This document shows positions 1,390-59,780 of a stretch of 64,000 nt of DNA, one piece after another (positions within the stretch are counted from its first letter, which is position 1; the number at the start of each line of letters is the position of its first letter). Both the position numbers and the translations under genes were made by a program. Under the pieces are notes generated by a model that worked only from the letters and a program-made list of their open reading frames with translations, made no database searches and was not told where the DNA came from. The stretch covers positions 199,206,001 through 199,270,000 of the forward strand of contig JBITNC010000001.1 in assembly GCA_050084985.1 (NCBI GenBank). Direction: 5' to 3'. This DNA is from Nageia nagi (taxonomy: Eukaryota; Plantae; Pinophyta).

Positions 1390-3371
1390 GAAGGACTTAA
1401 AGAACCATTGAAGGATTTGGTCAAAGCTTTCGACAAGATGCAATTAAGAGGGCTCTTACTCTTGAAGAGTCTACTCTACCAAGGACCAAGCACGTTACAC
1501 CATACCATAGACCAAGCATGGGAGAACCATTCAAGAAGGATGCTTCACCACCAAGAAGAGACTCATCAAGTGGGAAGGCCACTCTTGCTCCTCCCATTAC
1601 ATACACAAGAAGAACCAAGGATGAGAGGAATGAAAGAAACAAACTAAGGAGGAAGAATTTATGCTTTAATTGCAAGCAACCTTGGACATTAGGTTACCGT
1701 TGCCTTGGCAAAGGGGCAATACATTAGATTGAGGTCTTATCTGAAGGAGAGTCATTCTATGAAGAAGATGAAGCTAATGATGAGTATGATGAGGAGTCAT
1801 CATATAGAACCATGAACATCTAAGGACCAAAGCATACTCCACCAATGACCTCAAGAGGAGGAACACTAGATACATTGAGTGGTATGAATCAATACTTCAC
1901 TACGAAGGTTCCCAAAGAAGTTTTGGTAGAGAAGGTTCTAGTTTTGATAGATGGAGGTGCAACCAATAACTTTGTCAATGAGAAGCTAGCCACTGCCAAG
2001 AAGATGAAGATTGAACCTATTGGTATGTTTTTCTTTCCTAGTCCAAAACATGCACAAGATTTGGAGGAAACAACGTTACTTGTTTCCGCCTGAAAGGACT
2101 GGTTACCCCAAGCGCTCACATGGAATATGGTCTTTAAGAAACAGTAGTCAAAGATGCATATTGTTAATTGTATACAAGGGAAATACGACGTTGAAGTTCT
2201 TCTCCACAATGAGGAAAGACTACAAATGTGAACGAAAGCGAAGAAAGATCACAAATGTATGGACAAACACAGGGATACATGCAAAGGAATACTTGGAAAG
2301 ATGAACTTATGAAGGCATTACTAGTGGTGTAGTGTTTCGGTAGGTCATCTTCAGATTCATTAAGGTCAATGTACTCACTATCAAGCCGGGCAACAAATAG
2401 CAATATGCACTCAAATCACTACCAAACGAGAGCAAGAAGCTGTTGGGTCTTGGTGGAAGACTTAGTGGGAAGGAATAAATGAGGTGAGGGCATGGGCACA
2501 AGGACCTAATTGAATGGTATAAAGACAAGCTATGAGCCTCAGAATACATCCACTTATGTGCAAATCATGTAAAGAACAACTCAAACCACTTCCATGAATA
2601 TTCAATATGTAACTCCAAGAGGAAAGTCATTCAAATATGCATGATCCCACAAATGATATTCTTCACAGTATTAACTTTATAATCTCATTCCACAAAAGAA
2701 ATAAATTCATAATGATATTCAATGATAAACATGCATAGAACCCCTTATGCAGCAAACCTCTATGCAATGGAATGTAAAAGCTTTAGGATGCAACAAACTC
2801 AAAATCTTGCACATGTAAAGGCTTGAAACCAGCATCTCAAAATGCAAGATTGTCAATATGTAATACTTCTATTAAATGCAGAGTCTCACATGTGCAAATA
2901 TGCGTAAAATTCTCAATATCATTTAGTATTTCAAATGCAAAAATCCCCTTCTAAATGGCCACGATGGAGTATAAATAGGCCACTAGAAGTGTTTCCCTAA
3001 AGGCATCAAATCTAATATGGTGTGCACACATGCAACACACATACTGATACAAAATCAGATTGTTCTCCTGAATCGATGCAAGTGGCACTTAAAAGTGTAA
3101 CAAAATATAAATGCCACCACTAAAATGCATTTAATCTACCTCTAAACTACTCAAAGCCAAACTAGATATGCAACAAAAGGGTTTGACATCTGAACTGGCG
3201 GGAGCAAAACCTCATCCCTGCACTAGTTAGAGTCATAAATGAGTCTGATAGATTTGACCTAGCGGGAGCAAAAACTCATCCCTTCACCAATCAAATCAAG
3301 TAAATAAAGTTTGACATAACAACCACCATCAAATATGCATCAAACAAAAAGAACAAATATCACAGGCGGAA

Positions 3372-4568
3372 TGTGACGTCCCATTTGGATCATTGAGAAA
3401 ATATGTCATGGTCACTTTGTAATCTAGTGTTTGCTTATGATCATGTTGTGCTTGTGTAACTCAAGCAGGAGCTTATGGTTTGTGGACCCCACTGTGAGCC
3501 AGTAATGGGACGACTCCCCTTGAGTAGTGTTGAGTTAATTGTAATGGGTTATCCCGAATTGTGGGAATCCCTAGATAGGCATGAGTCTTGTTTAGTCCAG
3601 AGTGGAGCATATAGCGTTGGGAGGGCCCCACATACCCCACGTTGGCTTATGAGGCTACTTGGACCCCCACGTCAGCTTAAGAGGCTCATCCCCAGGTCAG
3701 CCTTGATGGCCTTTATGACCCCCATGTTGGCATATTGGGCTTATGGGACCCCCATGTTAGCATATTGGGCCAATATGACCCCCACGTTGGCATGGTTGAC
3801 CTGTTGACCCCAACGTTGGAATAGACTTGGCTTGGGATGATAATAAGGCATGATGGATACGAAAGGCTATATATTGAGGATGGAGCTCCATGATGAGATT
3901 AGCTATTGATTATACTTCTTCCATACTCAACCCGATTGGGCATTCAAGTCTTGGTAGTGCTAAGCATTATTCCTAGACGATGTCTGGAGGGGTGATAGGG
4001 TTGGGAGCTTGGCATTCTACGACTTAGGTGGGTCACCTAGTCCATTTGATGGTATTTCGAGGGCAAGCTTCTACCTTCAATGGTTGCTAGGGTTCGAGGA
4101 GGCTCCTTTGCAGGAGAAGATTCAGAGTTTGAGGGAGTGAGTCTTTCCTGTGGTGTTCGGCTTGCAAAGGGTTTGGAACCCTAGATCTGAGTGTTGAGAT
4201 CCTCATTGTATTCCATTCCATATCATAATAATATACAGCTTGTGTCTCTCTCCATTGTGTTGTGCATTGTTTATGTATGTGTTGTGTCTCTTGTATATTG
4301 GTGTTGGAAGCTTCATTGCATTCGTGGGTATTCAAGCATTGCATATTCACCTGTGAAGCATTCGTTGAGGTGCCAATTGTTGGTGTGTTCCTTAGAGGGC
4401 TAACGTCAGGGTATAAGGGTTGCGTGAAAGCCTTAGGAGGCTCACGTCTACATTGTAGGGAGTTTGGGTGCCCCAGGGGCCTAATGTGGGTGTGTCTGCA
4501 TCATTCATTAAGGGTTTGAGTATCATAATTGGAATTGTTTTTGTTGAGGGTGATTTTAGGTCATCACA
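3372..4568 (+). mobile_element. Solo LTR related to family A, nested in B1
   Basis: TGTGAC...ATCACA with TSD CGGAA/CAGAA (one mismatch, CpG-type). Absent from the equivalent site in B2. Contains 30-bp tandem repeats at ~3715-3810. Confidence 0.85.
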
Positions 4569-4569
4569 C

Positions 4570-7500
4570 AGAATCTGTGAGTGGATCAGACCTAAGCCAG
4601 ATTTGATTCGATACTGGCGGAGTTCCACTCCTTGTTGGTGAGACCGTACGACTCAGTGGTCTCCTCCAAGAATGCCACAGTCTTCCGTACGCCCTTGAAA
4701 TCATTTTAACGGTGCTACCATTCTGCGGAAAGTAGTCCTCTATCTTCCTAGACGTAGCCTGCATCTTGTGTCTCTAGATGACCATCTGCCTTTCTTGGAC
4801 GATAGGATGCCCTACCTTCAGCAAGTTGAGATCATCGATGTCTAGATGCTCCTATATCAGGTTCTGAGCCTCTACCAATATCGCCTCTTTTTACATTGTT
4901 ATCCTCCCCTTGGAACTTGAGCTAATAGGCATAGTTGCTCATCTATTCCTCAACCTCCTTTCTCAAGGGGATTCTAAGCTTCAGGATTGTGTTGCACTTC
5001 TCGAGTGCATGATTCAGCCAATCATGGTGGTAAGTGAACTCGTGGCAGTAGAATAATTTTTCAGGATTGTCAGCGTAGACATGCTGCAGATGGGAGACAT
5101 TGGGGAGATAGCTATTCAATGTACTAAGGTGTGCTAAGATTTGTGCCTTAAGGTCCCTAATTTCCACACCTTCAACAAGGAGCTTATAGATTTGAGAAGA
5201 CAACCTCTCGATAGCCTCCATCATTTCTTTTTGTAACTACTCCTTCATCAATTCCCATCCCTCATGGAAGGAAGTCTGCTTCATCAAATCTATGGGGGTG
5301 GTATTGACCTTCATGAATTTGTTGATGATCTTCTTGTTAGCCGTGAGTTCCTTTTTCAGCCTCTTCACATCCTTTTTGGCTTCGTAGCCTTCCTACTCCA
5401 TGATTGCAGCGTTTTGAGTGACTATATGTTTATGGGCTGTCCATCTTAACTTTACGAGCATCTTAAATGTCTTGATGGTACAGTCTTCTGCTCTCTGAGG
5501 ATGTTTCTTCTTTGAATAACAATGGCTGATGGAGATTTCCTTTTGGGAGGTGGAGACAATTGTATCAACCCTTTGAATCTTTTCACCATCCGAAAGCTCC
5601 TCTTCCTCATCTTCAAAGCTCAGATTTTGGTCTATATCTTCATCATGAGCTGTGCTCATGCTAAGGGCTCTAAGGAAGGCATCCAAGTCAAAATCTAGAT
5701 GCTTGGTTGCTGGTTGGGGAGGAAGCCTTTGTACCAACAATCGTCCTTTATTGATCTTCTTGGCTTCTTGTATCGGAGTATTTTGAACAAAGGGTGATCT
5801 TCTTACTCTGGTTCTCTTCCTGTCTTCTCTTCTTTTTTTATTCTTCGATTTCTCCTTCATCCTCTTCATCTCCTCCATCACCATCTATAGATATGCCTTT
5901 GTTCCTAGGTTGGGGGGACCTTTCATGGCTCGTTCTCTTTGTAGAGGATTTCTACAAATAAGAAGAGGACCTTTTCCTATGCTCGGTAGGAGAGGGTATG
6001 GAGACACCCATCCCTCTGGCATACGTTACTTCGGTGACTTGGACCTCGTCATCATCATAGCTCCCAATGTCCACAATCTCATCATCTTCATGGAGATTCT
6101 TGATCTCTATCTCATTAGGTGCAGAGGCACCTACGATTACGTCTTCTTGCTCAGGGACAACGATAGCATCATCATCTTCCTCTTCTTCTTCTCTTCCACA
6201 CGACTCTTTGACTCTTCTCCGGAGTCTTCCGTTGTACGATTGGGCTCTTCATCAGTCTCTACGTCGAAAGAGGAAGTGGAGCGTTCGGAACTGAAACTAG
6301 AACTTGGTTGCGACGGGGGGAATTTCTCTCTGCATCCAGAAGAGCGAGTCTGGAAGGGATCGCTTATGTGGGTGAATCACTAGCACAAGTCTCATTCACT
6401 ACATCATCCAGCACATCCGAGGGGATAATGCAATAGCCAGCATCCTTGAAATCAGCCATTAGTACACTACACTTGCTAGGGCCTAGAATGTGCTCCCTCG
6501 GAGCCTCTTGCCTTTTTCCAGTGGGAAGCAAGGGTGCCTTAACTGGCGGAGGTGCAACACGTACAAGAGGAGGGGATGACCTGATCCTAAGAGGGACCTC
6601 TTTAGATCTAGATTTAGTAGTTCGGGGTTTCTGAGGTGGTTTTCCTTCTTGGAGGGAAGCCTTTTTCCTGCTCAAGAGAGCATCTACGTTTGCAATCTCC
6701 TTCTTATCTTGCACGTTTTGGTACTTCTCCACACCCCCCAAAGACTTATGCTGAAAAGCAATAGGTTTGTGGAATGCAATGCTGTAGAAATGTGCAATAT
6801 TGCCTCTAGGATCATAGTTTTGTACCATTGCCTCCTTGGAGAAAACATACTGCTATAGCTCCTTCTTCATTCTGGTTGCTTCAACCCATGTCTGACACAC
6901 ATACCTTGCAATTGAGATAGGCATGTTAATGGACGCATTCTTCTTCTTCCAAACTTTCTCTTTCAAGAACAAAAGTTGCCTGGTAAATTCCATGAGGATA
7001 AGCCTATCACTAGCATATCTTGGTAGGAGTAAGGGTCGCTTTTTCGAGCCATAGACTTTGATGAATGTATGGTCACATCTTGCAGAAAGAAATCTGCATG
7101 TACACTGATGGCTTGGATGACTGCATCAGAAATCCTCTTCACCATGGACTTCCCTTTGATATCTTTATAGATATCATACTCCCAGTGATCATTCCTCTCA
7201 CAAAAATGCTGGAACTTGTTCTGGTACCACCACTTTGGATAAGCCCGCCACACGGGGGTGCCTTTTAGACCCAAATACCTTTTATCAACCAGCTCCTTGG
7301 ATCTAACCTTGCCATGCAATAACAAGTATACAAGATAGGAATTCATGTAGAATCTCCTTGAGGAGCCAAAGTAAGCTAACTGGTGGCATAGGGAATCATT
7401 GATCACCCCACTTCATCGGATAGCTCTCCCCGAACTAATGACTGCAATGAAGCTGTAAACGCCTTCCTACACTTAGCATCAATTTCCTGACCAGTGATCT

Positions 7501-8125
7501 TGGACAAAAGAGTGATCAATTTGGCTACGACAGGTAAGAACTCTTCTCTGCGAACATTGATCAAACCTCTGCCCTTGAAGATTTTGGTAATCTTCTAGTA
7601 ACCATGGCCGAATGTAGTCCCCAGGCTAGGTCGTGGAATCATGGAACTCTTCAAAATATGCCAATGTGTAGTCGTCCCCATATCTTTTCCAGCCAAAGGT
7701 TGCTTCAATTCCAGCAGGGGGGAAGTCCATAATTACATTTCCCTTTGTGTCCTATAGGACTCTTGTCGTTTTCACATCTACTGGCTACCTCATAGCACAA
7801 ATTAGGAAAAGGTACTACAAAAGGCATCATAGTGGCATTGAACAATCCACAGGTGTGGATAAGCTCCTCTGATAAGTCCTCCTTGTTGATGGAGGCAATG
7901 GAGGCTAAATTCTGGATGGGATCCAACTTTCCCTAGTCCGTATCACCAACAAAGATATATCTTCCCTTAAATTTGGCTTCAAGGAGCTCTGGTCTTTCTC
8001 TCTTGAAACTCAATCAGGCTCTCTTTCAAAAGTTAGGCCATCTTGTTCTTAGTTACATGTCTCTCGAATAATTGCCCTTGAATTTTCCTGGCTCTTGATG
8101 GAGGTGGTCTGATATTTGAAGCCAT
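4570..8125 (-). pseudogene. Degenerate ~1,170-codon ORF of unit B1 (unknown TE accessory protein)
   Basis: ORF fragments MASNIRPPP..., MDPIQNLAS..., RRFYMNSYLVYLLLHG..., an acidic/basic middle and a coiled-coil-like C-terminus. All fragments align with the B2 copy; broken by stops and frameshifts. Confidence 0.8.
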
Positions 8126-8244
8126 GTAAGAATGTTTGGAATGCCCCCAAAAGAACCTAAGGACGATTCTGGATGCAACAAGAAAGAACCAAACATGCAG
8201 GTCTGGGCTATAGGACGTCCAATGCATTGGATAAAAGTTGCCTT

Positions 8245-9230
8245 CCTTTTATATGAGATGCATGGAAGGTGAATGTATGGCAAAGTGCATGCCTGCCACT
8301 TGTCTTCTTCTCCTCTCAACTCCTAGCATCTCACACTTGGCCAATTTCATCTTGTAACCTTGTATGCACAGTTTTGGATGAGTGCTTGAGCATTGCCTGA
8401 AAATCATGCGACTGGGCCTTGGGTCAGTCAAATTTCGGGGTATAATTCACCTCACACTTGGGCGCATGGATCTGGGTGAGTGAAAAAACATGCACTGCAA
8501 AGCATGCGCCTCAAGCTCGGGGCTTAATTGTAATGCCTTAGCCAAAAATGGCTATCTGGATGCACAACGACCCTCTAGACTCCTTATTTCTCCCTTGCAC
8601 ATTGTTTTGAGTGAGTGCAAAAGCATGTGCTAGAAATGGTGCTACTGGGAGTAAGGTGAAAATCTGAGATGAAGTGGTAAAAATGACTAAGGGGTGGCTT
8701 GATATTTATAACCTTCCATGTTGCCACGTGTCACCTCTGGGTTGGTCAAATTAGGGGTCAAATGGTACAGCTAACATAAGGGGTGCATGGTTTAGGACGT
8801 GTGCAAAAGCATGTGTCAAAAAGCATGCGACTAGGATCTGGAAACTTAGTCAAATTTCGGGTCATGATGGGGCTCAATTCCTGGTTGCATCGTTTAGAAG
8901 GGGTGCAAAAGCATGCACCTTAAACCTTGTGCCTGGCCCTTTCTCTTAAATTTCAAACACTTAGCCAATTTCAATCCCGGGCCAAAACATCTAGGAGTGG
9001 GCGCATGACTTGGGAGGAGTGCTTTTTCATGTACAAAAAATGATGCGACTGGGGTCCAACACACCTCCCGAGACCAAAAATTTCAAAAATAGGCAAAAAT
9101 GACAAAAAATGCAAATCTAACATAGTTTGCATGTTTTGGAAGACATGCTTTTTCTCCCTTAGCTCCAAGTAATGTTCTAGACAATTTTGCAAACAGAATG
9201 ACTGAGGCTCACTTTTCTTTTATAGCCTTC
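8245..9230 (-). promoter_or_regulatory. Three TATA-containing promoter-like modules upstream of the B1 ORF
   Basis: TATAAAAGG (8245-8253), TATAAATA (~8703-8710) and TATAAAAG (~9217-9224) on the minus strand. GACACGTGGC G-box/ABRE at 8723-8732 lies just upstream of the second. The two distal TATAs are also present in B2 (15339, 15731). Confidence 0.5.
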
Positions 9231-12200
9231 TCGGATAGGACAAGTGTTGTCATATGATTGGTGCAAGAGGGTGGCGAATGCATGTGTTAACACTTGTCAA
9301 CAATCCGGGCCGAACACTTGAAAACATGTGACTAGCCTTGATTGTCTCAAAAATGGCTAAGTACAAGTCTCCTCTTCCCTGGTCGCATGGTTTGAGTTGG
9401 GTGCAAAAGTACTCACTTGAAAACATGCGATTGGCTTTTTCCAGAAAAATGCTAAATATGAGAGCCTCAAGTTTGGTCACACCATTTTGGGTGGGTGCAA
9501 AAGCACACACTTGAAAACATGCGACTAGCTGAAAACACATTTTTGCCTTGAACTCTGACCATAATGACTTCAAACATGAAATGCAATGAGGGAGAGATGA
9601 ACTTTTGCAGCATGGGGGACCTTGAAAGTGTAATTTTAAGACTAAAGAATGCAGGTAATGAGTATGAAAATGCAGCATGAGGTTGGTTGCACCGTGTAGG
9701 GGATGTGCAGAAGCATGTCCCTCAAAACATGCGATTGAGGAAAAATGCATGTTTCTGACTTGATTTGACCATGAATGTGCAGGTTTAACATGTTTCCAAA
9801 AGCTAGACCAAATGCATATAGATGTTTACTTCCATGCATTATTCTTTTATTTTCGAGGGTCCTCAAAAATGCAAAATTTTGGGGGATGTTGTGCAGGCAC
9901 AACAGAACCATTTCCGGATTTTCATGTGATAGTTGGAAATGGGAACATCACACCTTGTAAGAAATATGTGCCCAAGATGAAGGTTAGTTTAAAAGACTAA
10001 ATTATTGAAGATGACTTCTTCATCTTCCCTTTGGGAGACTCACCTCATTTTGTTTTTGGAGTACAATGGTTGGTATCCTTAGGAGACTACACCACCAACT
10101 ACTCAACCTTGCAATTCAAGTTCAAGAGTGAAGGCTGTGAAATCACACTTCAAGATATCAAAGAGGACAAGAACCAAAATGCTTCAATCAAGAGATTGGA
10201 GGCAACCACATCAAGTGCAAAGGATAGAACCACCTCAAGCATGGGACCGCAAGAAGATAGAAGAAGACCTTTGGAACAAAGATGGACTTTGACACCCAAA
10301 GGCATTCAAGAAGAAGGTACACATGTAGCTCCCTTCACTTTTTGTTCATCTCCCCATTCTCCAATTTTTGAAAATAAAATTAGTCCCTCATTTGGTCTAG
10401 AAATGCTAAAGCTCCACCAAACATTCTCTATGAAACCTAGGATGTCCACTAGGCCTCACATATATGGAAAAAGATTAGCCGCAAGAGACATCCCTCATTT
10501 ACCCATCAAGAGAATAAAAAAAGACCTTAGAGAGCTCATCAAACCATTGATTAGACCCATCAAATACCCTACTCTCAAATTAGAAGGGCACCTTATGGGA
10601 GATTCCATTCTTATCCTAGACTCCTAGTAGACAATGGAGCTACCAATAACTTCTTTAATGAAGCCTTGGTCCTTAGAGCAAATATGAAAAGAGTTGAAAC
10701 TCAAGAATTTGGTATCACCAATGCTAGGGATTACCAAACCATATGCAAATACATGGTTAGGGATCTTAAGTTGACCATTGGAGACCACACCATCATAAAA
10801 GACTTCTACATTTACCCCATGGGTGGCTCACCTTATATTTTTTAGGAGTCCAATGGTTATACCAATTAGGAGATGTCACCTTCAACTATCGAAAATTGGA
10901 AATGAGCTTCTTCGAACAAGGAGAGAAGCTCACATTGAAAGGCATCCATCCTATACACCCATTGATGGCTTTGAATAGTTTGGAAAGCATCTATGAAGAT
11001 CTCCCAAGAGAGAGCTTTCCCATTAGCCATCACACTTTTTCAAGCAAATCTAACAATGGTAAACTAAGTTTTAAGAGAGGGCAGCCTTGGTTAGAGAAGG
11101 GCAAAAATATGACTACATCATTTGAGCCTCCACCCACATTTGGCAACCAACAAGCAAGAATCTTATGGGTGATAAAGGTAGCATCGGCAACAACATTACA
11201 AGGCAGCCTTTGTTTGCAAAAATGTGTCATTTTATCTACATTGGTTTGGACAACAATCATCTCAGTTTGGATAGAGTCCATGGACAGCCTTGGATTGTAA
11301 GAAACATTCCTAGCTCTTGCAATACATGGAGGCACCATACAATTGGTTTTTATGGCAGGACATGGAGCATGTTTTCATCCCTTGAATATATACTCAGTTT
11401 GGGATAAATAAAGTTGAAAAACATTGGCAAAAAAACACTTCAATCCAGAACAAAAAGGAACAACAATATACCTACCAATTGCAATCATGATTGCATCAGG
11501 GAAGAGGGACAAAAACCATCTCAAAGGGGAAGGAACAGGCAAGACATCATTTCTGATTTTTATGACAGTCTTGTGAAAGGTAAAGAGCACATGTTGAAGA
11601 TTGAACTCAGCCATTTTTCCCCTCTCAAAGAAGTATTACATATGAAAGTAAGAGAGTCTTTGAAGATCCACGCATATCCACTTCTTGGACAGCTAGACAT
11701 GAGGTATATCAGTCCATATCACATCAACATTCTTGATTCCATTTCATTCCTTTGGTTAACCATCATGAAGGGTGATATACAAGCACTCTTTGAGTTTCAT
11801 ATGACACCTTCCGTTGGGATACTTGAAGGTATGATCTACACCTTGCTTGACAAAGTTTATGATGCAAATAAGAAAAGAAATCAGTCCTTGTTACTTCAGC
11901 CTATGATATTGCCAATGACAGCATGTATGAATCTTGATGTTGCCAAAAAGAGATGAGCTTACTATCATCCCTCTATGACCTTGGCATAAACAAGTACAAT
12001 TCAGTTTTGAAGATTGATATTGGTTAGGAAGACACAGTTTGTGGACTCAAATATCAGTCCACTATTGATTGATTTGTACCTTGTTTTGGTTGGGAACAGG
12101 CCCACCAAGTTCAGCACACTTGGCACAAAGGACATAGCAACAAGATCAAATGAAGAAGATACACTTGGCAAGCATTTGAACAACATCCTCACCTCATCAG

Positions 12201-12522: not shown

Positions 12523-13501
12523 TGTAATGTCTTGGATTTGGGAAATTTAAACATCTCCCCTCATACCTATTCATTGTGATCTCTAGCACTTAGCTTAGGA
12601 GTATTTTATTATCATTTTATTTATATTTGTGCCTAAAAGGAATGCGCCCAAGTAGAGGGCATATTTGGTGTTTACTAAGGAAAGAAAAAGGGCCATTTAA
12701 TGTAATAAATCTCCCCTCACCAAGTCGACCATGTTTGGGGGACTTTAAGTGCATTTAATATTTTATTATTATTACCTCCTTGGTCGGCCATCCTGGGAAG
12801 ATATAATTGCATTTTTTAAGGACTATAAAGGCAAGTCATTTGGTCACTTGAAGACATCATCTTGTGCATTCGATCTTTGATCATCCAAAGCTTAGGGATG
12901 TTTCCCTTCTCTACCTTCTAGGGATTAGGGCTGCTCCCTAACCAAGAAGTGACTCATCTACACTTCTACATCTCTTGGAGAGCTTGCACCTATCATTCTT
13001 GCCACTTGGAAGCTTGGACCAGCCATTGGAAGACATCTTGAGACTTGCGCCTAGCTTTGGAGCCTTCTTGGGACATGCGCCAGTCTTGAGGAGTCTAGTT
13101 TGAGTATTTCGGAGTCTTGGGCTTTGCCTTAGAACTTGTTACAGTCCTATACATATTCTTGGTTCATTATTGATGATATTGGCTCTCATATTGCATCTTG
13201 AATGTGAATGAATGTTCCTACATATTTCTACTATGCATCTATCTTTTTTGTGGCATGGGAATGTATGTGAATTGAGTACTTTGCAGCTATATTTCTGTTA
13301 TGTAACAGATCTGATTTGTACCCTAGTTTTGATCAGGTTTGCATGTTATATAGGCTTTATATCAGATTTAGCTACTGCTGTTATATTCCAGTTTGAGTGC
13401 ATGTTTTGGATGGTTTATTAGCATGTTCATTGATGCCCTAATTCGTGAATAAGGGTTGAATTGAATGCTAAATTGGATAAACCCTAGAAAGGTAGATTAC
13501 A
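12523..13501 (+). mobile_element. 3' LTR of H1
   Basis: TGTAATG directly after the PPT, ends GATTACA. Similar to 21097-22092 and 43949-44200. Confidence 0.85.
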
Positions 13502-14593
13502 ATGTACCTTCAGCTCTAGAACAACAATATGGGATGACTTCTATGAAAATCTGTAGGGTAATTTTAACCTTTGACATATTTGCTTCTAAACACTTGGGTT
13601 GTGGAGCATTAGATGGAGAAGGCTCTACCACTTACAAGTTGAGGAACATTGTTGATGAAACTGCTGAGCATTCATTGTCAAACTCACTTCTCATGTTTCT
13701 TCTCATTGATTTACTCATTACTACTGTCGGTTTTGCTCACTCTTGTCATGATACAACCTTAGAAGATGCTGGAGGATTGAATTTAAATGATACTGAGAGG
13801 TTTGGACAGTTTTTTCTACTAATATACATGTAAAATCAGACCTATTGCATGTAAAATCAGATTTGTTCGCACTTAGTTTGAGGACAATTGGAGGCTTGAA
13901 ACAATTTGGAAACAGCCTTGAAGAATTGTTCTGTGGATGTTATCTAGTTGTCGTATTATTCTTTGGCTCCATTACGAGTTTTAGTAGATTTGGGGGTTGT
14001 TCTTTCATGTTATGGACAAGAGTAATGATAAATGAGCATGGCGAGCAGTTGAGCTTATTGGGAGCTTTCTGGGATCCCACTCCACTCCCAAAGGAGATCG
14101 AGCTTCATTTTTTCTTACATGTTTATTTCCTTCATACAAGCTTGAGGATTCTTGTACACCCTTGATGATTGTGTTGGTAAGCCCAATTAGCCGTACTTCC
14201 ATGAGAGATGCAGATCTGATCAAGTTTGGCATGAGTTTTAGCACCTCATTGATGATACGATTACTTAACTTGAACATCATGGACATTCAAGGGAAGGAGG
14301 CATAGTTTTGGTATGATGACTTCTTGATCAAAGTTGATTGTAGGTTGACTTGGGACCCAGGACTTGCAATCATTGTCATGTGGGGCAGCCAAATGGTTTT
14401 GGGAGGATACATTCTGTTGTGCCTACACAACACCCCCCAAAATTTATGCATTTTGAGGACCCTCAGAATAGTGACAAGGAAGTTGCATAGAAAATAATTT
14501 GTCAAAGGGAATGCATATTTTTTTGGGCTAGCTTTGGGAACATGTTTTAGATTGCATTTTCATGGTAAAGTCAAGATCATACATTTTCCAGCC

Positions 14594-16085
14594 TGTTGCA
14601 TGTTTTTGAGTGAGTCCTTTTGCACTCCTTTCAAACCATGCAACCAGCCTCCTCCTGCGTTTTTCATCCTTGCTATGTAGTGGCACCCTGAAGGCCTTCA
14701 TGTTGCAGGAATTTGTAATTCTGTTTGCATTTCATGTATGTGTTGTTTTGGTCGAAAATGCAAAGGAAAATCACATCCTTTTCAGCTTGTCGCATGTTTT
14801 TGAGTGAGTCCTTTTGCACTCATCCCAAAAGGTGCGACCAGGTTGAAAACTTTCTCGTACTTAGCATTTTTGATGCATGGAAAGTTGTTGCATGTTTTCT
14901 AGTGAGTCCTTTTGCAACCATTAGAAAAGGTGCAACCAAGGTAGCAGTTTCTATACTTAGCATTTTTTTTGAAATGAAAGCTGTTGCATGTTTTTCAATG
15001 AGTTGTTTTGCACTCACCAAAAACAATGCGACTGGAATGGAGATTTCATACCTAGCACTTTTTTCAGAGCTATGAGTTGTCACATGTTTTTGAGTGAGTC
15101 CTTTTGCACTCGTCCAAAATGATGCGACCAAGGAGAAAAGTTCTTAGTCATTTTTATGGTCATCAAAGCTAGTCGCATGCTTTTCAATGAGTCCTTTTGC
15201 ATCCTACTTGAACCACTACTAGAATCACTAAGGGAAAATTGGCTTAGTGTCGGGTCTTGTTTGTTGACAAGTGGAAGCTCATAAATTGGACCTCCTTCTG
15301 CACCTATCACATGGCGACACCTATCCTATCCAGGGGACTATAAAAGGGAAGTCAGCCCCATTATTTCAGTTTGCTATCTTGTCTGGAGCAGAGCGTGGAG
15401 CTAAGGAAAACAGGGCACCCCGTCCGAAACGTATGACCAAGGTTTGAATAGCATTTTTCGAGGTATTTTGGAATTTCTGGTCTTGGGAAGCATGCCAGAA
15501 CCTAGGTGCAAGGATTTCGAGTTGTGCTTTTGCACTCATCAAAAACAGTGCGACCAAGGGGTTAAAACTTCAATGTCAAGTTGAAAATCAGCTAAGTGTT
15601 TGGAAGACTAGTTGCATGCTTTTCATCACATGCTTTTGCACCTTTGAAGAAACATGCACCCTTGTTCTTACTCCACTATTTGACCCCTAGATGGACCAAT
15701 CAATAGGTGACACCTGGCAGTACATGAATCTATAAATATCCCTTCACCCCTTAATCATTTGAAACATTCCATTTCAGAATCACCACCTTTTTCTAGTCGC
15801 ACCATTTCTTATGCATGCTTAGGCACTCATTCCAAATCGTGTGACCAAGAAGAAGGAAGGTTTTTGGGGTACATTGCGCATCTAGTCAGCCTTTTTGGCT
15901 GAGGCATTTCAGTTCAGCCCTTGAGCCTAGTCGCATGTTTTCAAATCTATGCTCAAAGCATTCATCCAAAACCATGCGCCTAGATTTGAAGTAGAGAATT
16001 TTGTTCCAGAATTTGACCAAGAGGCTCTAGGCCTAGTCGCATGCTTTTCAAGCTATGCTTTGGCACCCATCCAAAATTTTCGTCC
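14594..16085 (+). repeat. Array of ~11 degenerate ~50-bp units bounded by inverted GTYGCA...TGCRAC (~96-bp period in 14789-15220)
   Basis: Example gtcgca(14789)-N38-tgcgac(14833). Further units at ~14594, 14887, 14983, 15079, 15172, 15520, 15611, 15796, 15930 and 16036. Mirrored in B1 at ~8350-9740. Confidence 0.8.
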
Positions 16086-16138
16086 AGATTGGTTAGATGT
16101 CAGGAGTTGAAAGGTGAGGAGATAAGTGACATTCTTGC

Positions 16139-19100
16139 ATGGCTTCAAGCATCAGAGCACCTCCATTGAGGAACAAGAAGGTTTAGGGTCAGTTATTCGA
16201 AAGACATGTAACTAAAAGCCAGATGACCCGACTTTTGAAAGAAAGCCTAATTGAATTTCAGGAGAAAGAGAAACGAAAACTTCATGAAGCCAAATTCAAG
16301 GGAAGACATATCTTTGTTGTTGACACCGATTGGGGAAACTTGGACCCCATCTAGGCATTGGCCTCCACATCCTCCATCAGCCAAGAGGACTTGTCGGAGG
16401 AGCTCATCCACACATGCGGCTTGTTCAACGTCGCTATGATGCATTTGCAGTACCTTTTCCTAACCTATGCAGTGAAGTAGCCAAGAAATGTGGATATGAC
16501 AAGAGGGTCCTGTGGGACACAGAAGGCAACGTGATCATGGATTTTTTCCCTGCTGGAATTGAAGTAGCCTTCGGTTGGAAAAGGTATAGGGACGATTACA
16601 CATTGGCCTATTTTGAGGAGTTCCATGATTCCACAACTCAACTTGGGGACTACATTCGGCCCTGGTTGCTGGAAGATTATCAAAACCTTCAAGGTCAGAG
16701 ATTGATCGGCACACGGAGAGAGGACTTTCTGCCTACTGTGGCAAAGTTGATCACTCTCCTGTTGAGGGTGATTGGTCAGGAAAATGATGCCATATATAGG
16801 AAGGAGTTCACGGGCTTTATTGTAGTCATCAGTTTAGGGAAACTTATTCGATGGGTTGGGGTGATCAGTGATGCCCTACGCCACCAATTAGCCTATTCTG
16901 GCTCCTCAAAGAGATTCTACATGAACTCTTATCTTGTGTACCCGTTGTTGGATGGCAAAGTTAGATCCAAGGAGTTGGCTGATGAAAGGTACTTAGGGAA
17001 GAAGAACGTCCCTGTGTGGAGAGCTTACCAGAGATGGTGGTACCAGAACAAGTTCCAGTATTTCTATGAGAGGACTGATCATTGGGAATATGATATCTAC
17101 AAGGATATTTAAGGGGAATCTGTTGTGAAGAGGATTTCTGATGTAGCTGTTCAAGCCATCAGCATACATGCAAATTTCTTTCTGCAAGACGCTAACTTTA
17201 CCTATATTAGAGTCTATGGTTGGAGGAGCAACCCCTACTCCTACCAAAGTTTTCCAGTGACAGGTTGATTCTCATGAAGTTTGCCAAGAAACTCTTGTTC
17301 TTGAAGGAGAAGGTTTGGAAGAAGAAGAACGCTACAATCAATTTGCCTATTTCTATATCCAAGTATGTGTGTTAGACGTGGGTTAAGGCAGCCCATATAA
17401 GGGAGGAGTTGCAATACTATAACTTCTTCAGGGAGGTTGCTGATAGGAATTATGATTCTTAGGGCATAGTTGTACATTTCTATGACATCGCGTTTAACGG
17501 CTTATTGCATTTCCGTATAAGCCTTTAGGGAATGAAGAGAGGTATAGGAAAGTGTGGGATGAAGGGGAGATTGCGTGGATAAATGTTGCTTTGAGCAAGA
17601 AGAAGGCTCCCCTCTAGACAGAAAAGCCCCCTCAAAGACCTTGAACTACCAAGCCCCGATCTAAAGAGGTCTCTCTCAAGATCAAATCTCCTTCTCCTGC
17701 TCATACTACATCTTCACCAAGAAAGACACTCTTGCTTCCTGTAGGAAAGAGGCAAGAGGCTCTGAGGGAACCTATCCCATGACATAGCAAGCGCATCATG
17801 GTGATGGCAAATCTCAAATACGTTGGCTATCATGCTCTCCTCTCGGATGTGCTAGATGTAGTAAATGTGGCTTGTGCTAGTAATTCAACCATCAAAGCAA
17901 TCCCTTCCCGATCAGTTCATTCTCCTAGGTGTAGGGAGAAAGTTCCCCCTTTACAACCAAGTTCCAGTTCCAGCTCTGAGTGTTCACTTCTTCTGGTGAA
18001 GAAACTGATGAGGACCCTAGCCGTGCGGTGGAAGATTCTGGAAAAGAATTGGAAAGCCGTAGTGAAAGAGAAGAAGAAGATGATGATGTTGACAATACTG
18101 CCAGTATTCCTGAGCAGGAGGACGTACTTGTAGGTGCTTAAGCACCTGATGACCATATAATGAGATAGTGGACGTCGGTACTTATGATGATGACATCCAG
18201 ATAATTGGAGAGAGGTGTGCTAGGGAAGTGGCTACCTCCAAATCCTCTCCTGCCAAACATAGGAAGAAGTCCCCTTCTTCGCATAAGTCCTCCACAAAGA
18301 GGACGAGTCATGAGAGATCTCAGCCACGAAACAAAGGCATGTCCATAGGCAATGATGAAGGAGATGACAAAGATGAAGGATAAACTGAGGAGCAAAATAA
18401 GAAAAGGAGGCAGGAAGAGCATTAGGGAAAAGAGATAACCCTAGTTCAGACCACTCCAACAAAGGGGTCAAGAAGATTGATAGAGGAAGATTGTTGGTTC
18501 AGATATTTCCCCCTCAACCAACAACCGAACACCATGATCTTGACATGGATGTTTGTCTTAGAGCCCTATGAGCACAGGCCATGATGAAGACATAGATGAG
18601 GACATACGCTCTGAAGATGAAGAGGAAGAGCTTTCGGATGGCGAGAAGACTCGAAGGGTTGACACTTTCGTCTCCACCTCTCGAAAAGAGATCTTCGTTA
18701 GCCATTGCTATTCGAAGGAGAAGCACTCTCAAAGAGTGGAGGACTGTGTTATTGAAATGTTCAAGATGCCTGCGAAATTGGGGTTGACAGCCAGAAAGCA
18801 CATAGTTACACAAAATGCTGCAGTCATGGAGCAAGAAGGATACGAAACCCAAAAAGAGGTGAAGAGGTTGAAGAAGGAACTCACGGCTAGCAGGAAAATC
18901 ATCAAAGAGTTCTAGAAGGTTAGCACCACCCCCTTAGATCTATAGAGGCAGACTTCTTTCCATGAAGGGTGGGAATTGATGAAGGAACAACTTAAGGAGT
19001 TGATGGAGGCTATCGAAAAATTGTCTTCACAAATTTACAAGTTGATTGTTGAAGGTGTTGAAATCAAAGACCTCAAGGCAAGCATCTCAACGCACCTTGG

Positions 19101-19660
19101 CAAGTTGGATACTTATCTTCCCAACGTCTCCCACCTGTAGCACATTTTTGCTGACAACCCAGAAAAATTAGTCTATTGCCACGAGTTCACCTATAATCAC
19201 GATTGGTTGAACCATGCACTCAAGAAGTGCAATGCTGTCCTAAAAACTAGAATCCCCTTGAGAAAGGAGGTCAAGGAACAAATGAGTGATTATATCTATC
19301 AACTCAAGTTCCAAGGGGAGGAAAACAATGTTAGGAAGAAGGAAGCAATAATGGCAGAGGCTCAGAATCTGTTGCAGGAGCATCTTGATATTGATGACCT
19401 CAGTTTGCTGAAGGCAGGGCATCCCATCATCCATGAGGGGTGGATGGTCATCTGGAGACACTAGATGTAGGCTACATCAAAGAAGATTGAAGATTATTTT
19501 TGGCAGAATGGCAGCATTGTTGGCATGATTTCTAGGGGCGTGCGGAAGACTGTGGCATTCTTGGAGGAGACCATTGAGTCGTGCGGTCTCATCAGTGAAG
19601 AATGGAACTCCACTAGTATCAAATCAGATCTGGCCTAGGTTTAATCCACCTGTAGACTTC
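16139..19660 (+). pseudogene. Degenerate ~1,170-codon ORF of unit B2
   Basis: ATG at 16139 (MASSIRAPP...), then DTDWGNLDP, VPFPNLCSEVA, KRFYMNSYLVY, WWYQNKF, an S/E/K-rich middle and a coiled-coil-like C-terminus. Many stops are TAG codons. 3' end is approximate. Confidence 0.8.
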
Positions 19661-22092
19661 GTCTGCGATATCCTATTTTGTGTTTAATGCACATTTGATG
19701 TTGGTTGATTATGCCAGACTATATTTCATTGGATTTGACTGGTGTAGGGATGAGGTTTTGCTCCCGCTAGATCAAATTCGTCAGACTCTTTTATGGCTTT
19801 GACTGGTGCAGGGTTGAGGTTTTGCTCCCGCCGGTCTAGATGTCAGACTTTTCAAACCTTTTATTGCATATCAGATTTGCTTTTGCATAGATTAGAGGTA
19901 GATTAGATGCATCTTGTTGGTGGCATTCATATTTTGTCAGCTTTTGAGTGCCACTTGCGTAGTTTTGTATGGCAATATGATTTTTTATTGATATGCATGT
20001 TGCGTGTGTGCACACCATATCAGATTTGATGCCTTTAGAAGGGGATTTTGGAACTAGGGATTTTGCATTGGATTTTCGCAAGAGAAATTTTTGCATTGGA
20101 CTTTTGCATATGAAATATTTACATTGGAGGATCTCTGCAATTTTGCATCCAAACTGTTGCATGATTTCACGCATTGTTGCATATGTGAGACTCTACATTT
20201 AATGGAAATATCATATATTTGGGTTCTTGCACCTTTGATATTCTGGCTATCAAGTCTATGTATGTAATCATTTTGAGCCATTGCATCTTTTAGTATTTAC
20301 ATTCCATTGCATAGAAGATTGTTGCATAAGGGGTTCTATGCATGTCCATTATTGAATATCATTATGAATGTATATCTCTTGAGGAATGAGATTGTAAAGT
20401 TTATATTGTGAAGGATATCATTTGTGGGATTGTGCATATCTGAATGGTTCACTCTTGAGGTTGCACATTGAATATCCATTTGGTTGGTTTGAGTTGTTCT
20501 TTGCATGATTTGCACGTAAGTGAATGTATTTTGAGGCCTATAGCGTGTCTTTATATCATTTGGTTAGGTTCTTGCACTCACATCCTCACCTCACCTATAT
20601 CCTTCCCACCGAGTCTTCCACCGAGACCCAACAACTTCTTGCTCTCGTTTGGTAGTGATTTGGGCATATTTGCTATTTGATGCCTGGCTTGATAGTGAGT
20701 GCATCAACCTTAATGAATCTGAGGATGACCTGCCGAGACACTGCATCACTGATGATACTTTCATAAGCCTTTCTTTCCTCGTGTTCACTTGCATTTATCC
20801 TTGTGTTCGTCCTTGCATTTGTGATCTTTCTTCGCTTTCGTTCATATATGTAGTCTTTCCTCATTGTAGAAAGGATCTCCGACATTTATTTCCCTTGTAT
20901 ACAGTTAACAACATGCATCTTTGACTACTAAGCCTTGAAGACCATATTCCATGTGAGCGCTTGGGGTAACCATTCCTTTCATGCGGAAACAAATAACGTT
21001 ATTTCCTCCAAGTCTTGTGCATGTTTTGGACTAGGAAAGAAAAACATACGAACACATTCATTGCTTGAGGACAAGCAATTTTGGGAAGGGCGGACTTGTA
21101 GTGTCCCCAATTTTGAGAAACCTTGTTAAAGGCATAACTTCCGTCACATGTCTTGGATCACTAATTTGTCTTTTGGAATAGATGGAGAATCTTTTGTTAA
21201 TCTTTTGATAGGTCACATGATTGGTTTTGTCAAGAAACAAGGAAGATATGGACTTTGGAAGTTCACCCAGGAAACTAGAATTCTAATGTCACGGCCATGG
21301 AAAAGTCAACTAAGAGAAGGTTATTTTATTCCAAGTCAGCCAGGAGTTTAATTATTGGTAATTTCAAGGTAAAAGCACCTATACAAGGAGGAAAGGTTTT
21401 CCACTTGAAGAACATCATAATTTGGCATTTGATCTTGGATCATCTCGGAGATGGGGATGCACCCCTCTCTTCCGTCTATGGTCTAGGGCTGCTCCCTAGC
21501 CTAGAAGTGACATATTTGCAATTACATACACATGGAGAGCTTGCGCCAACATTGGAGGACCTTCTAGCCCTAGTTCTAGACCTTAGGAGTTATCTAAAGA
21601 CTTGTGCTAGCCATTCTTGGTACTTGGAGACTTGCGCCAGCCATTATATGTCTTTGTTGTGCACTTTTGGAGTGTTGGGCTTTGCCCTAGAATTTGTTAT
21701 AGGCTTGTTACAGTGCTATACTTACTCTTGGTTATTATTCTTGATATTTGGCTCTCATATTTCTCATCAAATGTGAATGAATATTATTCTACTACTGATG
21801 TACTGTTATCATTCGTTGTGCATGGGAATGTATGCAGATTAGAGTGTTTTGGATGCATATTACTGTCATGTTATAAATCTGCAATTGTGCCCTAGTTTGG
21901 TTGGTTTCGCATGTTGTATGAGCTTCTTCACTGCTATATATCAGATCTGGTTATAGTTATAATATTTCAGTCTTGAGAGCATTATTAGATGGTGAATGAG
22001 CATTTATTATTGTGCCCTAATTTGTGAATGAATGCGAAATTTGGTTGAGTAATTGTGCATGTTTAGCATAAGCCCTAGAAGGGTACATTACA

Positions 22093-25000
22093 TAACTCTC
22101 CAACATCAAATTTGAAAGCTAAGGCAAGTACCCCAACTTGCATGTTTTCAATCTTTAAAAATTGTAAACTCAATATTGATGTGAACTAGATTTTAAAGCT
22201 AGCTTTTAGTTGCATATCATTAGAGTTTGAAAATCCTAGACCGCACGCCTCTAAACTTTGACAGATTTAAATGAGGAATTAATAAGAATTAGATTAAGGA
22301 AAAATCAATGAAAATTCTTGGTTGCATATCACTAACCTTTAAGAAATCTGAACCAAGAAAAGATGCAAATAGGATTTTAAATTAAGTCTTTGGTTGCATC
22401 ATTCCCATCTTAAAAAATTCTATACCTCAAGGAGATGCAACCTAGATTTAGGAGACCTTCCTTCGTTGCACACTTTGAAGCTTTGAAAATTCCAAACCCA
22501 GAAAGCATGCGACCAAGATTCAGACCATAACCCTTAATCTCATGTGCTCAAACTTTGAAAATTTTAAATCCCAAAACGTGAGACTAGTCTTCAACCTCCC
22601 CCCCGACTTGCAAATTGCCTAAATCTTGAAAATACCAGCCATCATAAATTCCTTACTAGCTGAAATTCGTCAATCCTCTACTATTATAAGTCTTCTATGA
22701 ACCAATACTTGCCCGACTAACTATTCATTTTTTTAAAACAATTATATATTCTGAACCAAGATCTCTTTCTCTCAGAGAGAATGGGACAAGCAAATAGGCC
22801 AACTAAAAGTGGATATCAAGATAGCATTGGAAAAACAAGGGAGTACTCTACTTCCAAATGCCAATCTCAAAAATGGCCTTGCCAAGATAAGAGACACTAA
22901 TTAGTTCCAAATGGATCCAACTAAGATGTTGGAAGTGGTCATGAAGATGAAAGAGGGGGAATTGCGAGAAGACTTGTTGCATAAATCCGGGCTGTTTATA
23001 GCAGCAGTCATACCTTTCACAACCCCTTTCTCGGAATTGTGCTTCATGATTGGATCAATATGCGACCAACAAAAGAGGATCCTCCTCAATGCTAAGGGGA
23101 GACAAATTATGGATTTCAATAAGGAAGGGATTGAAAGGGCCTTCGAATGGACTGATGCAGCCATGATTCACATTGAGGAGGATTCCATAGCATTTTATGA
23201 GGCATCCAAAAAACTAGGAAGCTTAATTAGATATTGGTTGGTCGATGATTGCAAAGGGCATCATGAGAAACAACTGATAAATCCTAAACTTATCGAATTC
23301 TATCCTATGGTGTCAAAGATTATATGCTTACTATCCAAAGTACTAAGGAAAGAAGACTTGAAGTTGAGAAAAGAATATGCAAGGTTCATATTCCAGATTA
23401 ATAGAGGAAGAACCATCAGATGGAGCCAAGTTATCAATAATTCTATGGTGAAACAACTAGCCCAAATAGCCATAACTAAGAGGTTCTATATGAACTCGTA
23501 TCTGGTATATCTATTACTTCATGGTAAACAAAGGAATTCGGTGCATGGCAATATAGATGTACTAACAAAATCCCAATTTCGATGGGTTATCTTAGATGGA
23601 AGGTTGGAAATTGCTGGAATGATTTCATTACGAGCAATGATGGGTGGGAATACCAAATATATAGGGAACTTAAAGGGCATCACCATGTGAAGAGAATCTT
23701 AGAGGCTGTAATAGAGGAACTTAGAGGGCACACAAATTTCTGCATGAAAGAAGTGAAGACCACCTATATCAGGGTATACGGATTAGAGGAAGCTCCTTAT
23801 CGCTCTCACGATACATCAACGACAAAATTATACTAATGGATTTTTTGTCGACAACTTTCTTTCTTACACTCACATGTGGAAGAAGTTGACAACAATCAAT
23901 CTGCCTATCGTTGTCGGATAGTACGCTTGGACCAATTGGACGAACGTACCCACTATGTAGTAGGAACTTGATCTCTATGGATTCAACACGGAGATAAGGG
24001 CGCAACACTACGATCTTGATCACAAGATGCATGCCTTTAATAAAAAGTACCTCAAATGCCCCTATATTCACAAATGATTGAATAGAATAGAAAAATATAG
24101 AAACATTAGGGATGAGGTGGAGATTCAAAGGATACACATCCAACTAGCCAGAGCGAAGAACGAAACAACAAAGAAAAACAAGGAGATATCCAAAAGGTCC
24201 TTTGCCATCGATTCTGACCCTATAATTAAAGAAAAACCTACCTCACCTTCAATCAAAGGAAGACAAGACCGACTAGGCCAATATGCCACAATGGATATCC
24301 TAGGAAAGTAGGTCCAAGAAATTGTACAAGAGGTTGGAAAAGATGTAGCAACGTTAATAGGTGTAGAATACCAGACACATCCCTTTGAGGAGTTGGATGA
24401 CACTGCCATAGGTAAAAATGTCAGCCTAAATTGGGGTGAAATGATCAGTTCGCCATTCGTCACTACCCCACCACATGAAATCCATCAAAGCCAATCCGAG
24501 CCTATGGACTCACAACCACTAGAGAGCCCAACTCCACCTTATGCTCACGAACCCCAATGAGAAGAGCATTCAAGTCCTCTCCACGATCATAGTTCACAGA
24601 CTCCACACCATACAACCACCCCTAATCTTGAACACAACTCCTTGTCATCATCATATTCATGTACTTCATCCTCTAGTTCAGACGAGGAAGACCAGTCTAG
24701 CAAAGGTGGCAAAGAAGTAGACCAAGGAAAAGAGCCCCCAAAAGAAAATCCCCACCATTAGTTGAATGTAGATGTATGCACATATTCCAGTGACAAGGGA
24801 AGTGTCAGGATAGAAGATGATAACAACAAAATGCACTCTGAGTTAGATGAAGTCCTCAAAATACCTAACCCTATAGGCCAAGTTACTCAAATGGCGTCCT
24901 CTAAGTATTCTACTCCCAAGAGTAGGAAAAAATCAACAAAATCTCATAAGGAGACTAAGAGGACTTATCCTTGGAAAGCATCTAAACCTAGAGGGTTAGC

Positions 25001-25337
25001 ATCCAATTTAGTAGGAGGTGGGGGAATGAAGAAGATGAAGGTGAAGATGAAGAACAACACAAGAAGTGGAAGCAAATTGAGCATGACGGTAAACAAAACA
25101 CAATAGTTGAAGATCTCCCCTTAAAGCAGTTCCAACCTCAAGTGCAAAAGAGTTGGGACTTCGACATGGAAATGTGTGCCAAGGCACTATAGGTATATGC
25201 TTTAGATAAGGTGGATGATAAAGAGGAAGAAGATGAAGATGATGTTCCTGAAGGTGAAATCCCTCCAAACTATAGCATCAATACGTTCGTTGCTATGAAC
25301 AAAACCACAAGCTCGATTAATAAGCTCTCCACGAGCA
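22093..25337 (+). mobile_element. Unit C: diverged, truncated relative of unit B (repeat array plus homologous ORF at ~22781-25337)
   Basis: ORF 22911-23690 (MDPTKML...PFSELC...IRWSQVINNSMVKQL...KRFYMNSYLVYLLLHG) is homologous to the B ORFs. Preceded by ~72-bp repeats with GTTGCA-N37-TGCRAC at ~22130-22620. Confidence 0.75.
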
Positions 25338-26421
25338 AAAGAAAACCTTTCCTTTGTGAGTGGATACCATTGCATGCTCCTCTTAATTTCAATTCTCATG
25401 GAAGGGCTCTTCTTGTTGCAATATATTCACCAACTCTTCAAAGTTTGTCTTCTATTTGGTGATGTTCAAGGATGTCAGAAAGATGCGATATGATTCCAAA
25501 TTCCAAGTGTCCTCTCAAGACAATGGGTGCAAGGAGCTTATCTTCCACCATCTCTCCTAATGCTTGTAGGGAGGCACAAAGTTCTACAACTCGGTGAAGA
25601 AATGATTCCAAGTTTTCCCCACCTTTCAGATTTAAACTGTGTAACTATATTTGAAAATGAAGAATCTGATTTTGATTTTTTGATTCAAACACTTGCTGCA
25701 ATAAAATTCAACAACATCCTTGGAATCACAAATATGGGGTTGGACATCATCCGATACTCCAAAAAGGAGGATTATACATGCCTTTCTATTGTGTTGATCA
25801 AACTGTTTTTGTGGATCTCCAACAATTTTTGGGCGTTTTTTAGTCCCATCAACGATGTTCGACAAACCTTCAAATTCAAGAATGGCTTGAATTTTTGTTT
25901 TTAGGCAGCATCATTGTTTCCTTTCAAGACTTGAGAGTTAGGAAGGAGGATTTTTGGAACAATTTTTGCCATTTTTACTCAAAGCTACGAAATGGAGCCC
26001 AATTCGAGATTAACGTGAGCAAATTCCAGTAAACAATGGCAGCCACAATGGTCTCCTACACATGCTACACTATGCTTAGTCACAGTCTACAACAACAACA
26101 GTAGCAACAATACACATGAGCAATGACAAGTTTCTTTCATAGGCTACATCTCTTCTCTTCAACAACTAGATCTGATGTGAGAGGTCTCCTGCACTGCATA
26201 TGCACAACTGAGGATTTTATGCTTACCTTCTTATTGGATCTTTGCAAGAATAAATCTTTTACAAGCTTATTGGCAGCGAGAAGCTTACTTTATTATATTC
26301 CGTAGTCAAGTATAAATACAAGAGATTGAACCTAAAAATAGATAAGTGTTCCTAAAAATAATATATATCTATAATTAACCACTATCTTATAATTAACCAG
26401 TAATTTATTATTATTCTAACA
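25338..26421 (-). mobile_element. Truncated Ty1/copia element: 5' LTR (~26176-26421) and degenerate gag
   Basis: Minus-strand gag fragments (VSDDVQPHICDSKD, TNFEELVNILQQEE). TGTTAG...CA LTR with a decayed Met PBS. Similar to the copia at 38630-43948. Confidence 0.65.
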
Positions 26422-31353: not shown

Positions 31354-32200
31354 TGTAGAATCCCAATCACAATTCAAGTGGAATTAAATAAAAAGCACAC
31401 AAGTATACTCCAACATCTGATCTAAGGCATCCAGATAAAGCTCAAGCAATGAAATAATGCCAATGGTTGGCCAAGACTAGCAGATACAAGTATTCAAACC
31501 CTCACAATGCCAACGTATGGCTTACACAAACATATACATGCAAAAGTAATCCAACGATGCCAATGGACAAGTATGCACAACACAAATATGAGATCCAATA
31601 GTCCACGACTTGTATTAGGATGTATGATGAAACAAGATACAATACTAGGTTCAAAGGGCCCAACGTTGGCCTCCAAGGAGCCAACTAGGGCACAACGAAT
31701 ATCCTCAATGCTGAACGGACGAAACATTGAATGGGACAGCCTCACTCCCTCAGAATATGAATCTTCTCCACCAAAGGAGCCCTCTCCAAACCTTGGCGAC
31801 CAACTAAATGGTTGAAGTGTGACCTCGGAATACCACCAGATGGGCTAGGGTGCTACACCAAAGCTGTAGATTAATAGGATCCCTCAGCCTATCAACCCTC
31901 CTAGATGTTGCACCCAAGGATATTGCTTGATGTTACGCCAAGACTTATGTCCTTTGGACGGTAAGTGTATAATCAATAATTTGTATATCCAATAATAATG
32001 CTCTAAGGGCTAATATAGCTTTCCTGGATCTGGATCTCACCTCGAAGTCATCACCCAGTCCCCTCAAACCCCAACGATGGCACCTAAGAGTCATTCCAGG
32101 CCAACATGGGTATTTGGGCATCCCTTATGCTCCACGTGGGTCCTCAAGCTCAATGTGGGCTTAGGCATGCATGTGTGGGTCCAGGAGGCATGTGTGGGCA
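31354..32200 (-). mobile_element. Partial family A LTR
   Basis: Reverse complement of the 3' two-thirds of LTR A, starting TGTAGAATCC; truncated at ~32200. Confidence 0.85.
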
Positions 32201-32477
32201 TTCTAATACATGATTCAATCAGGCCAAACGTGTTTTGTCTTTGTCTTTGTCGTGATAGAAGCCCCAAGTCGCTTGTATCATTATGGACATTGATTTCAAA
32301 GTGTGCGAATAGAATATGAAAGGAAGAACGCATCGCATCAACATCACATCAAGTCTACACAAACATACCTGTTGTGACTGCTCATCTAATTATTGATCAT
32401 CTTGCAAGTGTCCAATGCTTGTAGTTCATGAGATTGCATAAAACAAATAGTGAGACTGTGTGGAGTGCATGTTTGTA

Positions 32478-44200: not shown

Positions 44201-44231
44201 GTAACGGCTTCACCTACTCCCGACTTCACCA

Positions 44232-59372: not shown

Positions 59373-59780
59373 TTAGAAGCATAACATGATTCTTGAAGAC
59401 TCTATAAATACTACTCATCAACACATTATTACTAAACCCACTACGTTTACTCCATTTAGTTGCAACATCATGAGCTTCTTTCTAATAAAAAATGTTAGGG
59501 GAGCCCTTGACTCCCCATATGCATTATTCTTGATTTTAATCAAATATATTGGATTTGATACTTTGAATCCCCCTTGCTTCTTTTCCTCTTTTCTACTTTT
59601 TATTACACAATGGAGTCTCAAAAGAGCACGTTATATATATATACATTGACCATTGTTTTGGTCATACATGGATATTAATATCAAATTTCAAATTATCACT
59701 TAACATCATTAATTATTATTATTTTATCATAATATTAATATAGTATTTACCTAAAATCTTGTGAGAAATTAGAATACCGC

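Follow-up and report, generated by a model that had tools for sequence, protein, structure and literature searches.

The window analysed here comprises 64,000 nucleotides of the Nageia nagi (Pinophyta) genome (GenBank assembly GCA_050084985.1, contig JBITNC010000001.1, positions 199,206,001 to 199,270,000) and holds two decayed copies, B1 and B2, of a 6.6-kb unit that carries a long gene of its own. Codon-level comparison shows that the gene evolved under purifying selection; it was functional during the spread of the family, and both copies here are pseudogenes. With a probability of about 0.5, the copies are solo long terminal repeats (LTRs) of a Tat-like Ty3/gypsy retrotransposon, encoding a predicted anti-silencing protein of the plant mobile domain (PMD)/VANC type that would act on the unit's own repeated motif. 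Taken by itself, the claim that the unit is a giant solo LTR is the likelier part and probably correct; the gene would then lie inside an LTR, and its anti-silencing role is a prediction from a structural model and by analogy.

The two copies lie in opposite orientations and are colinear from first to last base in a global alignment, with an identity of 67-80% by region (5' non-coding part 67%, gene 73-79%, 3' part 80%). Both are flanked by 5-bp target-site duplications (TSDs) and have TG...CA ends, except that one terminus of B1 is TA rather than CA; without its nested 1,197-bp solo LTR and without one TSD, B1 measures 6,685 bp. An internal LTR pair was not found in the unit, the longest internal direct repeats (~250 bp) falling within a 5' tandem array, and neither terminal direct repeats nor a PBS-like motif (primer-binding site, PBS) adjoining either end were found, while the inverted match between the ends is just 4-5 bp. 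An earlier reading of this DNA from sequence alone (the sequence-only reading) had described the same colinearity, ends, B1 length, and lack of an internal LTR pair or PBS, and is borne out apart from the TA terminus. B1 interrupts the protease-like reading frame of another gypsy-type element, whose motif can be read on both flanks (a Pfam search of the flanks gave no match to this frame), and B2 lies just upstream of a purine tract and LTR of another element; the sites are unrelated and the insertions independent. Four public read runs were surveyed (at most three samples; 2,466-9,805 contigs placed per run). Contigs join 14408 to 21054 in three of the four, an empty site that confirms both B2 boundaries. 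Since all 30 bins of the unit are covered in each run and contigs skip exactly the unit in three, the unit is a real multicopy family with fixed ends.

A single frame of 1,180 codons, which opens with the ATG at 16139 and closes with a stop codon common to all three copies, was modelled from an alignment of B1, B2 and L001, a third gene copy from a metagenome contig that spans the gene and neither unit end. The frame junction near 18340-18505 is supported by two copies, L001 being deleted there. The sequence-only reading had one long ORF (open reading frame) of ~1,170 codons filling over half of each copy; such a frame is traceable, but neither copy retains it open, and in B2 no uninterrupted stretch exceeds 262 codons. 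Premature stops (nine in L001; table for B1 and B2) are mostly private, with three positions common to B1 and L001. The ratio of nonsynonymous to synonymous substitution rates (dN/dS) among the three copies is 0.29-0.32 when transitions carry a sixfold weight (0.13-0.16 without weighting), against 1.19-1.90 in the two shifted frames, and variable columns at codon positions 1/2/3 number 333/263/620. By region, the N- and C-terminal parts give 0.24-0.33 and the linker 0.41-0.58. The proposed gene therefore withstood scrutiny, with a frame traceable in three copies and dN/dS of ~0.3, rather than a consensus lacking an open frame and a ratio of ~1. Neutral decay after insertion, estimated from stop counts at ~0.08-0.14 substitutions per site (probably an overestimate), is included in these values, so constraint in the active lineage was stronger than they show.

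The best structural match to the modelled N-terminal domain is VANC21 (PDB 9LNK), with a weak fold score over ~190 residues and 5-8% sequence identity. The Pfam PMD (PF10536) and DUF1985 profiles gave no match among 28 alignment members and six longer queries, the gene product did not match Transposase_28, and the scanned parts of the gene matched no transposase or integrase. An env-like transmembrane helix was not found either: the best 19-residue hydropathy is 1.33 and 1.34 in two copies and reaches 1.75 in B2 only. A simple heptad score, the sole predictor used, places a coiled coil in the C-terminal region, and a globular domain followed by a predicted coiled coil is the architecture of Tat-type extra ORFs.

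The 5' non-coding part is the fastest-diverging part of the unit (61-73% identity per 200-bp bin) and contains a repeated 14-bp motif, with 12 matches in the window versus 0.21 expected and none of 100 shuffles above 2. B2 contains seven of these matches and B1 four, and the remaining one precedes C, a divergent relative of the gene; as the motif was derived from B1 and B2, the independent enrichment is that upstream of C alone. Ahead of the three genes the 7-bp core of the motif reaches densities of 3.9-7.5 per kb, compared with 0-0.7 per kb elsewhere. Part of the motif array of B2 is held in a 96-98-bp tandem array at 14787-15012. In what follows, sources available to us in part are marked as such. 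Within its own element, VANC21 binds non-coding regions at a nine-base motif and causes the loss of methylation there; VANC targets are often tandem repeats (PMC5735166, in part). A short motif concentrated in non-coding DNA and amplified in tandem is thus a feature that the unit shares with VANC systems.

Standard reverse transcription requires a terminal repeat, a PBS and a polypurine tract (PPT). Without terminal repeats, long inverted repeats or a PBS, the unit cannot copy itself in this way or as a transposon with terminal inverted repeats (TIRs), and recombination between two LTRs is its simplest origin. In LTRs, U3 is more variable than R/U5. The polarity of the unit, with a variable, repeat-rich 5' part containing TATA-like boxes and a 3' end conserved at 83-95% identity, fits an LTR. 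The TATA-like boxes of B2 at 15339 and 15731 are also present in B1, and none was found downstream of the gene on the sense strand of the unit, which may place the gene in R/U5. On the opposite strand, a single conserved TATA-like site at 20550 may allow the reverse orientation. Our proposal starts from two observations: the unit has integrase-type ends and 5-bp TSDs at each of two unrelated sites, and its gene was under purifying selection prior to the decay of the copies. A full element of ~18-19 kb, two 6.6-kb LTRs around gag-pol, would have integrated, and LTR-LTR recombination would have left one LTR with its TSD. The gene would be transcribed in LTR sense from the upstream TATA boxes, and the protein, with a predicted N-terminal PMD/VANC-fold domain, disordered linker and C-terminal coiled coil, would oligomerise, bind the repeated 5' motif and, by analogy with VANC21, keep the family unsilenced in trans. 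Young solo LTRs would have been helper cassettes. The sequence-only reading suggested that all solo LTRs remain complete expression cassettes; this can hold at most for such young copies, not for B1 and B2, which are pseudogenes. B2 also lacks a ~240-bp segment before the start codon (16126-16127 versus B1 8380-8137), which contains the third TATA-like box in B1 and is, by eye, apparently present in L001.

Published surveys bear on this giant-LTR reading in both directions. The REXdb summary covers 27 gymnosperm TatII elements of up to 18,138 bp, with forward extra ORFs preceding the polyprotein (23%) as well as following it (26%) (PMC6317226). At the level of this summary table, extra ORFs on both sides would be the pattern expected from an LTR-internal ORF, and the length is near 18-19 kb. 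Tekay elements likewise have extra ORFs on both sides, 33/18% forward and 12/8% reverse (PMC6317226, Additional file 5), which could perhaps also be LTR-internal. Several points weigh against a solo LTR: such copies are a minority in four conifers (source in part), the largest LTRs are put at ~5 kb in the literature, and another study, available in part, did not observe extra ORFs in its gymnosperm lineage II. Furthermore, the one loose end listed at the unit's 3' terminus in contigs of the four runs shows no clear PBS, and none of the loose ends listed has one; the types known are tRNA-Asp/Asn for TatII and tRNA-Arg for TatIII/Ogre (PMC6317226).

The unit could be a giant solo LTR and still encode an ordinary Tat-type accessory protein, either a PMD joined to a coiled coil or something unrelated, with no anti-silencing role, its motif serving as an enhancer for host transcription factors. 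Accessory PMD and PMD-coiled-coil ORFs of Tat/Ogre elements are already known, in the internal region and with unknown function (PMC7264820, in part), VANC and MAIN share a fold (PMC13547354), so that the match may only mark PMD ancestry, and the fold score is weak. We regard this as unlikely, as the motif accompanies the gene family as far as the divergent C and motif copies amplify in tandem, as VANC targets do (PMC5735166, in part). More doubtful still is an LTR-less unit that would be copied and inserted in one piece through an integrase supplied in trans and would carry the gene as its sole cargo. Both complete copies are single with TSDs, no retrieved relative has a PBS or gag-pol, and the size exceeds the usual LTR range; but the unit contains no terminal repeat, PBS or PPT for standard reverse transcription and no long terminal inverted repeat for cut-and-paste, solo LTRs of a conventional family occur in the same window, and only two copies are at hand.

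Two further origins are very improbable. One is an amplified non-autonomous family derived by deletion or rearrangement from a normal short-LTR element, which might explain why the 3' 450 bp, which could be common to other families, are more conserved than the rest. No direct repeat links the two ends, however, and chance deletions cannot have produced copies that, at 20-33% divergence, still align over their whole length and share both termini. Least probable, by a small step, is a DNA transposon, either of Ginger type (TG...CA ends, gypsy-like integrase) or a non-TIR Mutator/VANDAL-like element keeping only a VANC-like gene. DNA transposons typically have dispersed subterminal motifs, but Mutator TSDs are ~9 bp and Ginger-type elements have long terminal inverted repeats. 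Here the TSDs are 5 bp in both copies and the scanned gene parts match no transposase, which does not fit Mutator/VANDAL membership; the inverted match of only 4-5 bp and the absence of an integrase match in the same parts do not fit a Ginger-type element. VANC genes are known from Mutator-like elements (PMC5735166, in part, and PMC13547354), but VANC is described as dicot-specific (PMC13547354).

Genes borne on LTRs are known from retroviruses, namely MMTV sag and the overlap of nef. As proposed here, these genes lie in the terminal repeat and survive in solo LTRs; unlike the 3.5-kb plant gene, they are short and belong to animal retroviruses, with no sequence relation shown. The Tat clade (TatII, TatIII, Ogre, Retand) resembles the unit in very long LTRs, 5-bp TSDs, tandem arrays, and an accessory ORF that combines a globular domain with a coiled coil (PMC6317226, PMC4408406, PMC11963269; in part). 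The published extra ORFs are internal, whereas the present gene lies within the TG...CA unit, has 1,180 codons and matches neither Pfam PMD nor Transposase_28. No pol sequence turned up for this family, whose placement in the Tat clade is tentative. VANC21 of VANDAL21 (Mutator-like, Arabidopsis) is alike in predicted fold, in being element-encoded, in the repeated motifs of its element's non-coding DNA and in a coiled-coil region, and unlike in sequence and in its Mutator element; the unit has integrase-type ends, and DNA binding and demethylation by its protein are predictions. Among plant mobile domain proteins (MAIN/MAIL1; retrotransposon PMD-A), PMD-C and VANC reportedly share a fold and PMD-A is retrotransposon-encoded (10.1101/2024.09.27.615353, PMC13547354), but the present gene does not match PF10536.

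Sequence-specific anti-silencing proteins have been described for Mutator-like DNA transposons, and both their LTR-element counterparts and the function of extra ORFs in plant Tat/Ogre/Retand elements are stated as open questions (sources in part). The literature searched, which included few subscription papers, yielded no long gene inside a plant LTR and no VANC-like protein-motif pair in a retrotransposon. We tentatively suggest, as a somewhat doubtful extension, that a retrotransposon lineage, probably of gymnosperms, transferred a VANC-like, sequence-specific anti-silencing gene together with its target motifs to a 6.6-kb LTR, so that solo-LTR formation, the main way in which the host removes such elements, would leave self-contained anti-silencing cassettes by which the family stays active in trans; in a bolder version, the unit would move without any internal region. 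The unit provides a concrete protein-motif pair for testing. If the gene does lie in an LTR, a solo LTR may be a trans-acting cassette rather than an inert scar, which would bear on how retrotransposons remain active in giant plant genomes. LTRs of 6.6 kb would escape pipelines with an upper limit on LTR length (the range is 100-3,000 bp in PMC13477047, in part).

Table. Positions of the unit copies, their parts and associated features in the window
Feature	Positions	Strand	Remarks
Copy B2, inferred solo LTR	14415..21054	+	6,640 bp, TG...CA ends
B2 left TSD CATTC	14410..14414		
B2 right TSD CATTC	21055..21059		
B2 5' non-coding part	14415..16138	+	7 copies of 14-bp motif; TATA-like boxes 15339, 15731
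B2 gene, broken	16139..19638	+	1,180-codon frame model, 16 stops, ~7 frameshifts
N-terminal globular domain, modelled part	16411..17109	+	VANC21 is top structural match; predicted PMD/VANC-type fold
Low-complexity Ser/Pro/Thr- and charge-rich linker, codons 481-800	17576..18502	+	weaker constraint, most in-frame indels
C-terminal helical region	18503..19638	+	under purifying selection; heptad scores peak at ~codons 900-1000, predicted coiled coil
B2 3' non-coding part	19639..21054	+	last ~450 bp are the unit's most conserved stretch, 83-95% to B1
Copy B1	2018..9904	-	TSD GAACC at 2013-2017 and 9905-9909
B1 5' non-coding part	8126..9904	-	4 motif copies; TATA-like boxes 9224, 8710, 8253
B1 gene, broken	4592..8125	-	15 stops, ~10 frameshifts
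Unrelated 1.2-kb solo LTR nested in B1 just after gene	3372..4568	+	1,197 bp, TSD CGGAA/CAGAA
Relative C, broken	22781..25350	+	N-terminal domain 37-44% amino acid identity; no element ends visible
C upstream remainder	22093..22780	+	twelfth motif copy 22501-22514; 5 copies of 7-bp core

Searching 1.84 billion representatives with a profile gave 47 matches, mostly unnamed fragments with identities from ~75% to ~25%; none of the relatives retrieved has gag-pol, a PBS or both unit ends, and end-pattern scans for the unit termini gave no matches. The ends of C are not visible because it is bounded 5' by an LTR and at 25351 by another repeat. By eye, C is nearer to a separate set of database matches (such as P0006 and P0024), which suggests that the gene family is old and diversified. 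Positions 1-640 of L001, just upstream of its gene, are joined to the middle of an LTR of the 1.2-kb family, a junction that may be a deletion, a recombination or an assembly chimera.

This 1.2-kb family occurs in the window at 205-1389, 3372-4568, 31354-32201, 32478-38088 and 44230-44914, as two solo LTRs with TSDs, one pair and two fragments; the pair is 89.5% identical, with a tRNA-Met-type PBS and a 3.2-kb internal region. In addition, two LTRs of ~1 kb at 12523-13500 and 21097-22092 (74.7% identical, a purine tract before each) enclose just ~1 kb of internal sequence, into which B2 is inserted, and possibly represent a tandem or non-autonomous element. A DUF659 match at 41405-42037 (E 1.5e-28) is presumably part of a hAT transposase. 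A young copia-type element lies on the minus strand at 55410-59373, with 295-bp LTR matches 99.3% identical, a PBS at 59076 and a 586-codon ORF that has a weak gag match below the Pfam cut-off.
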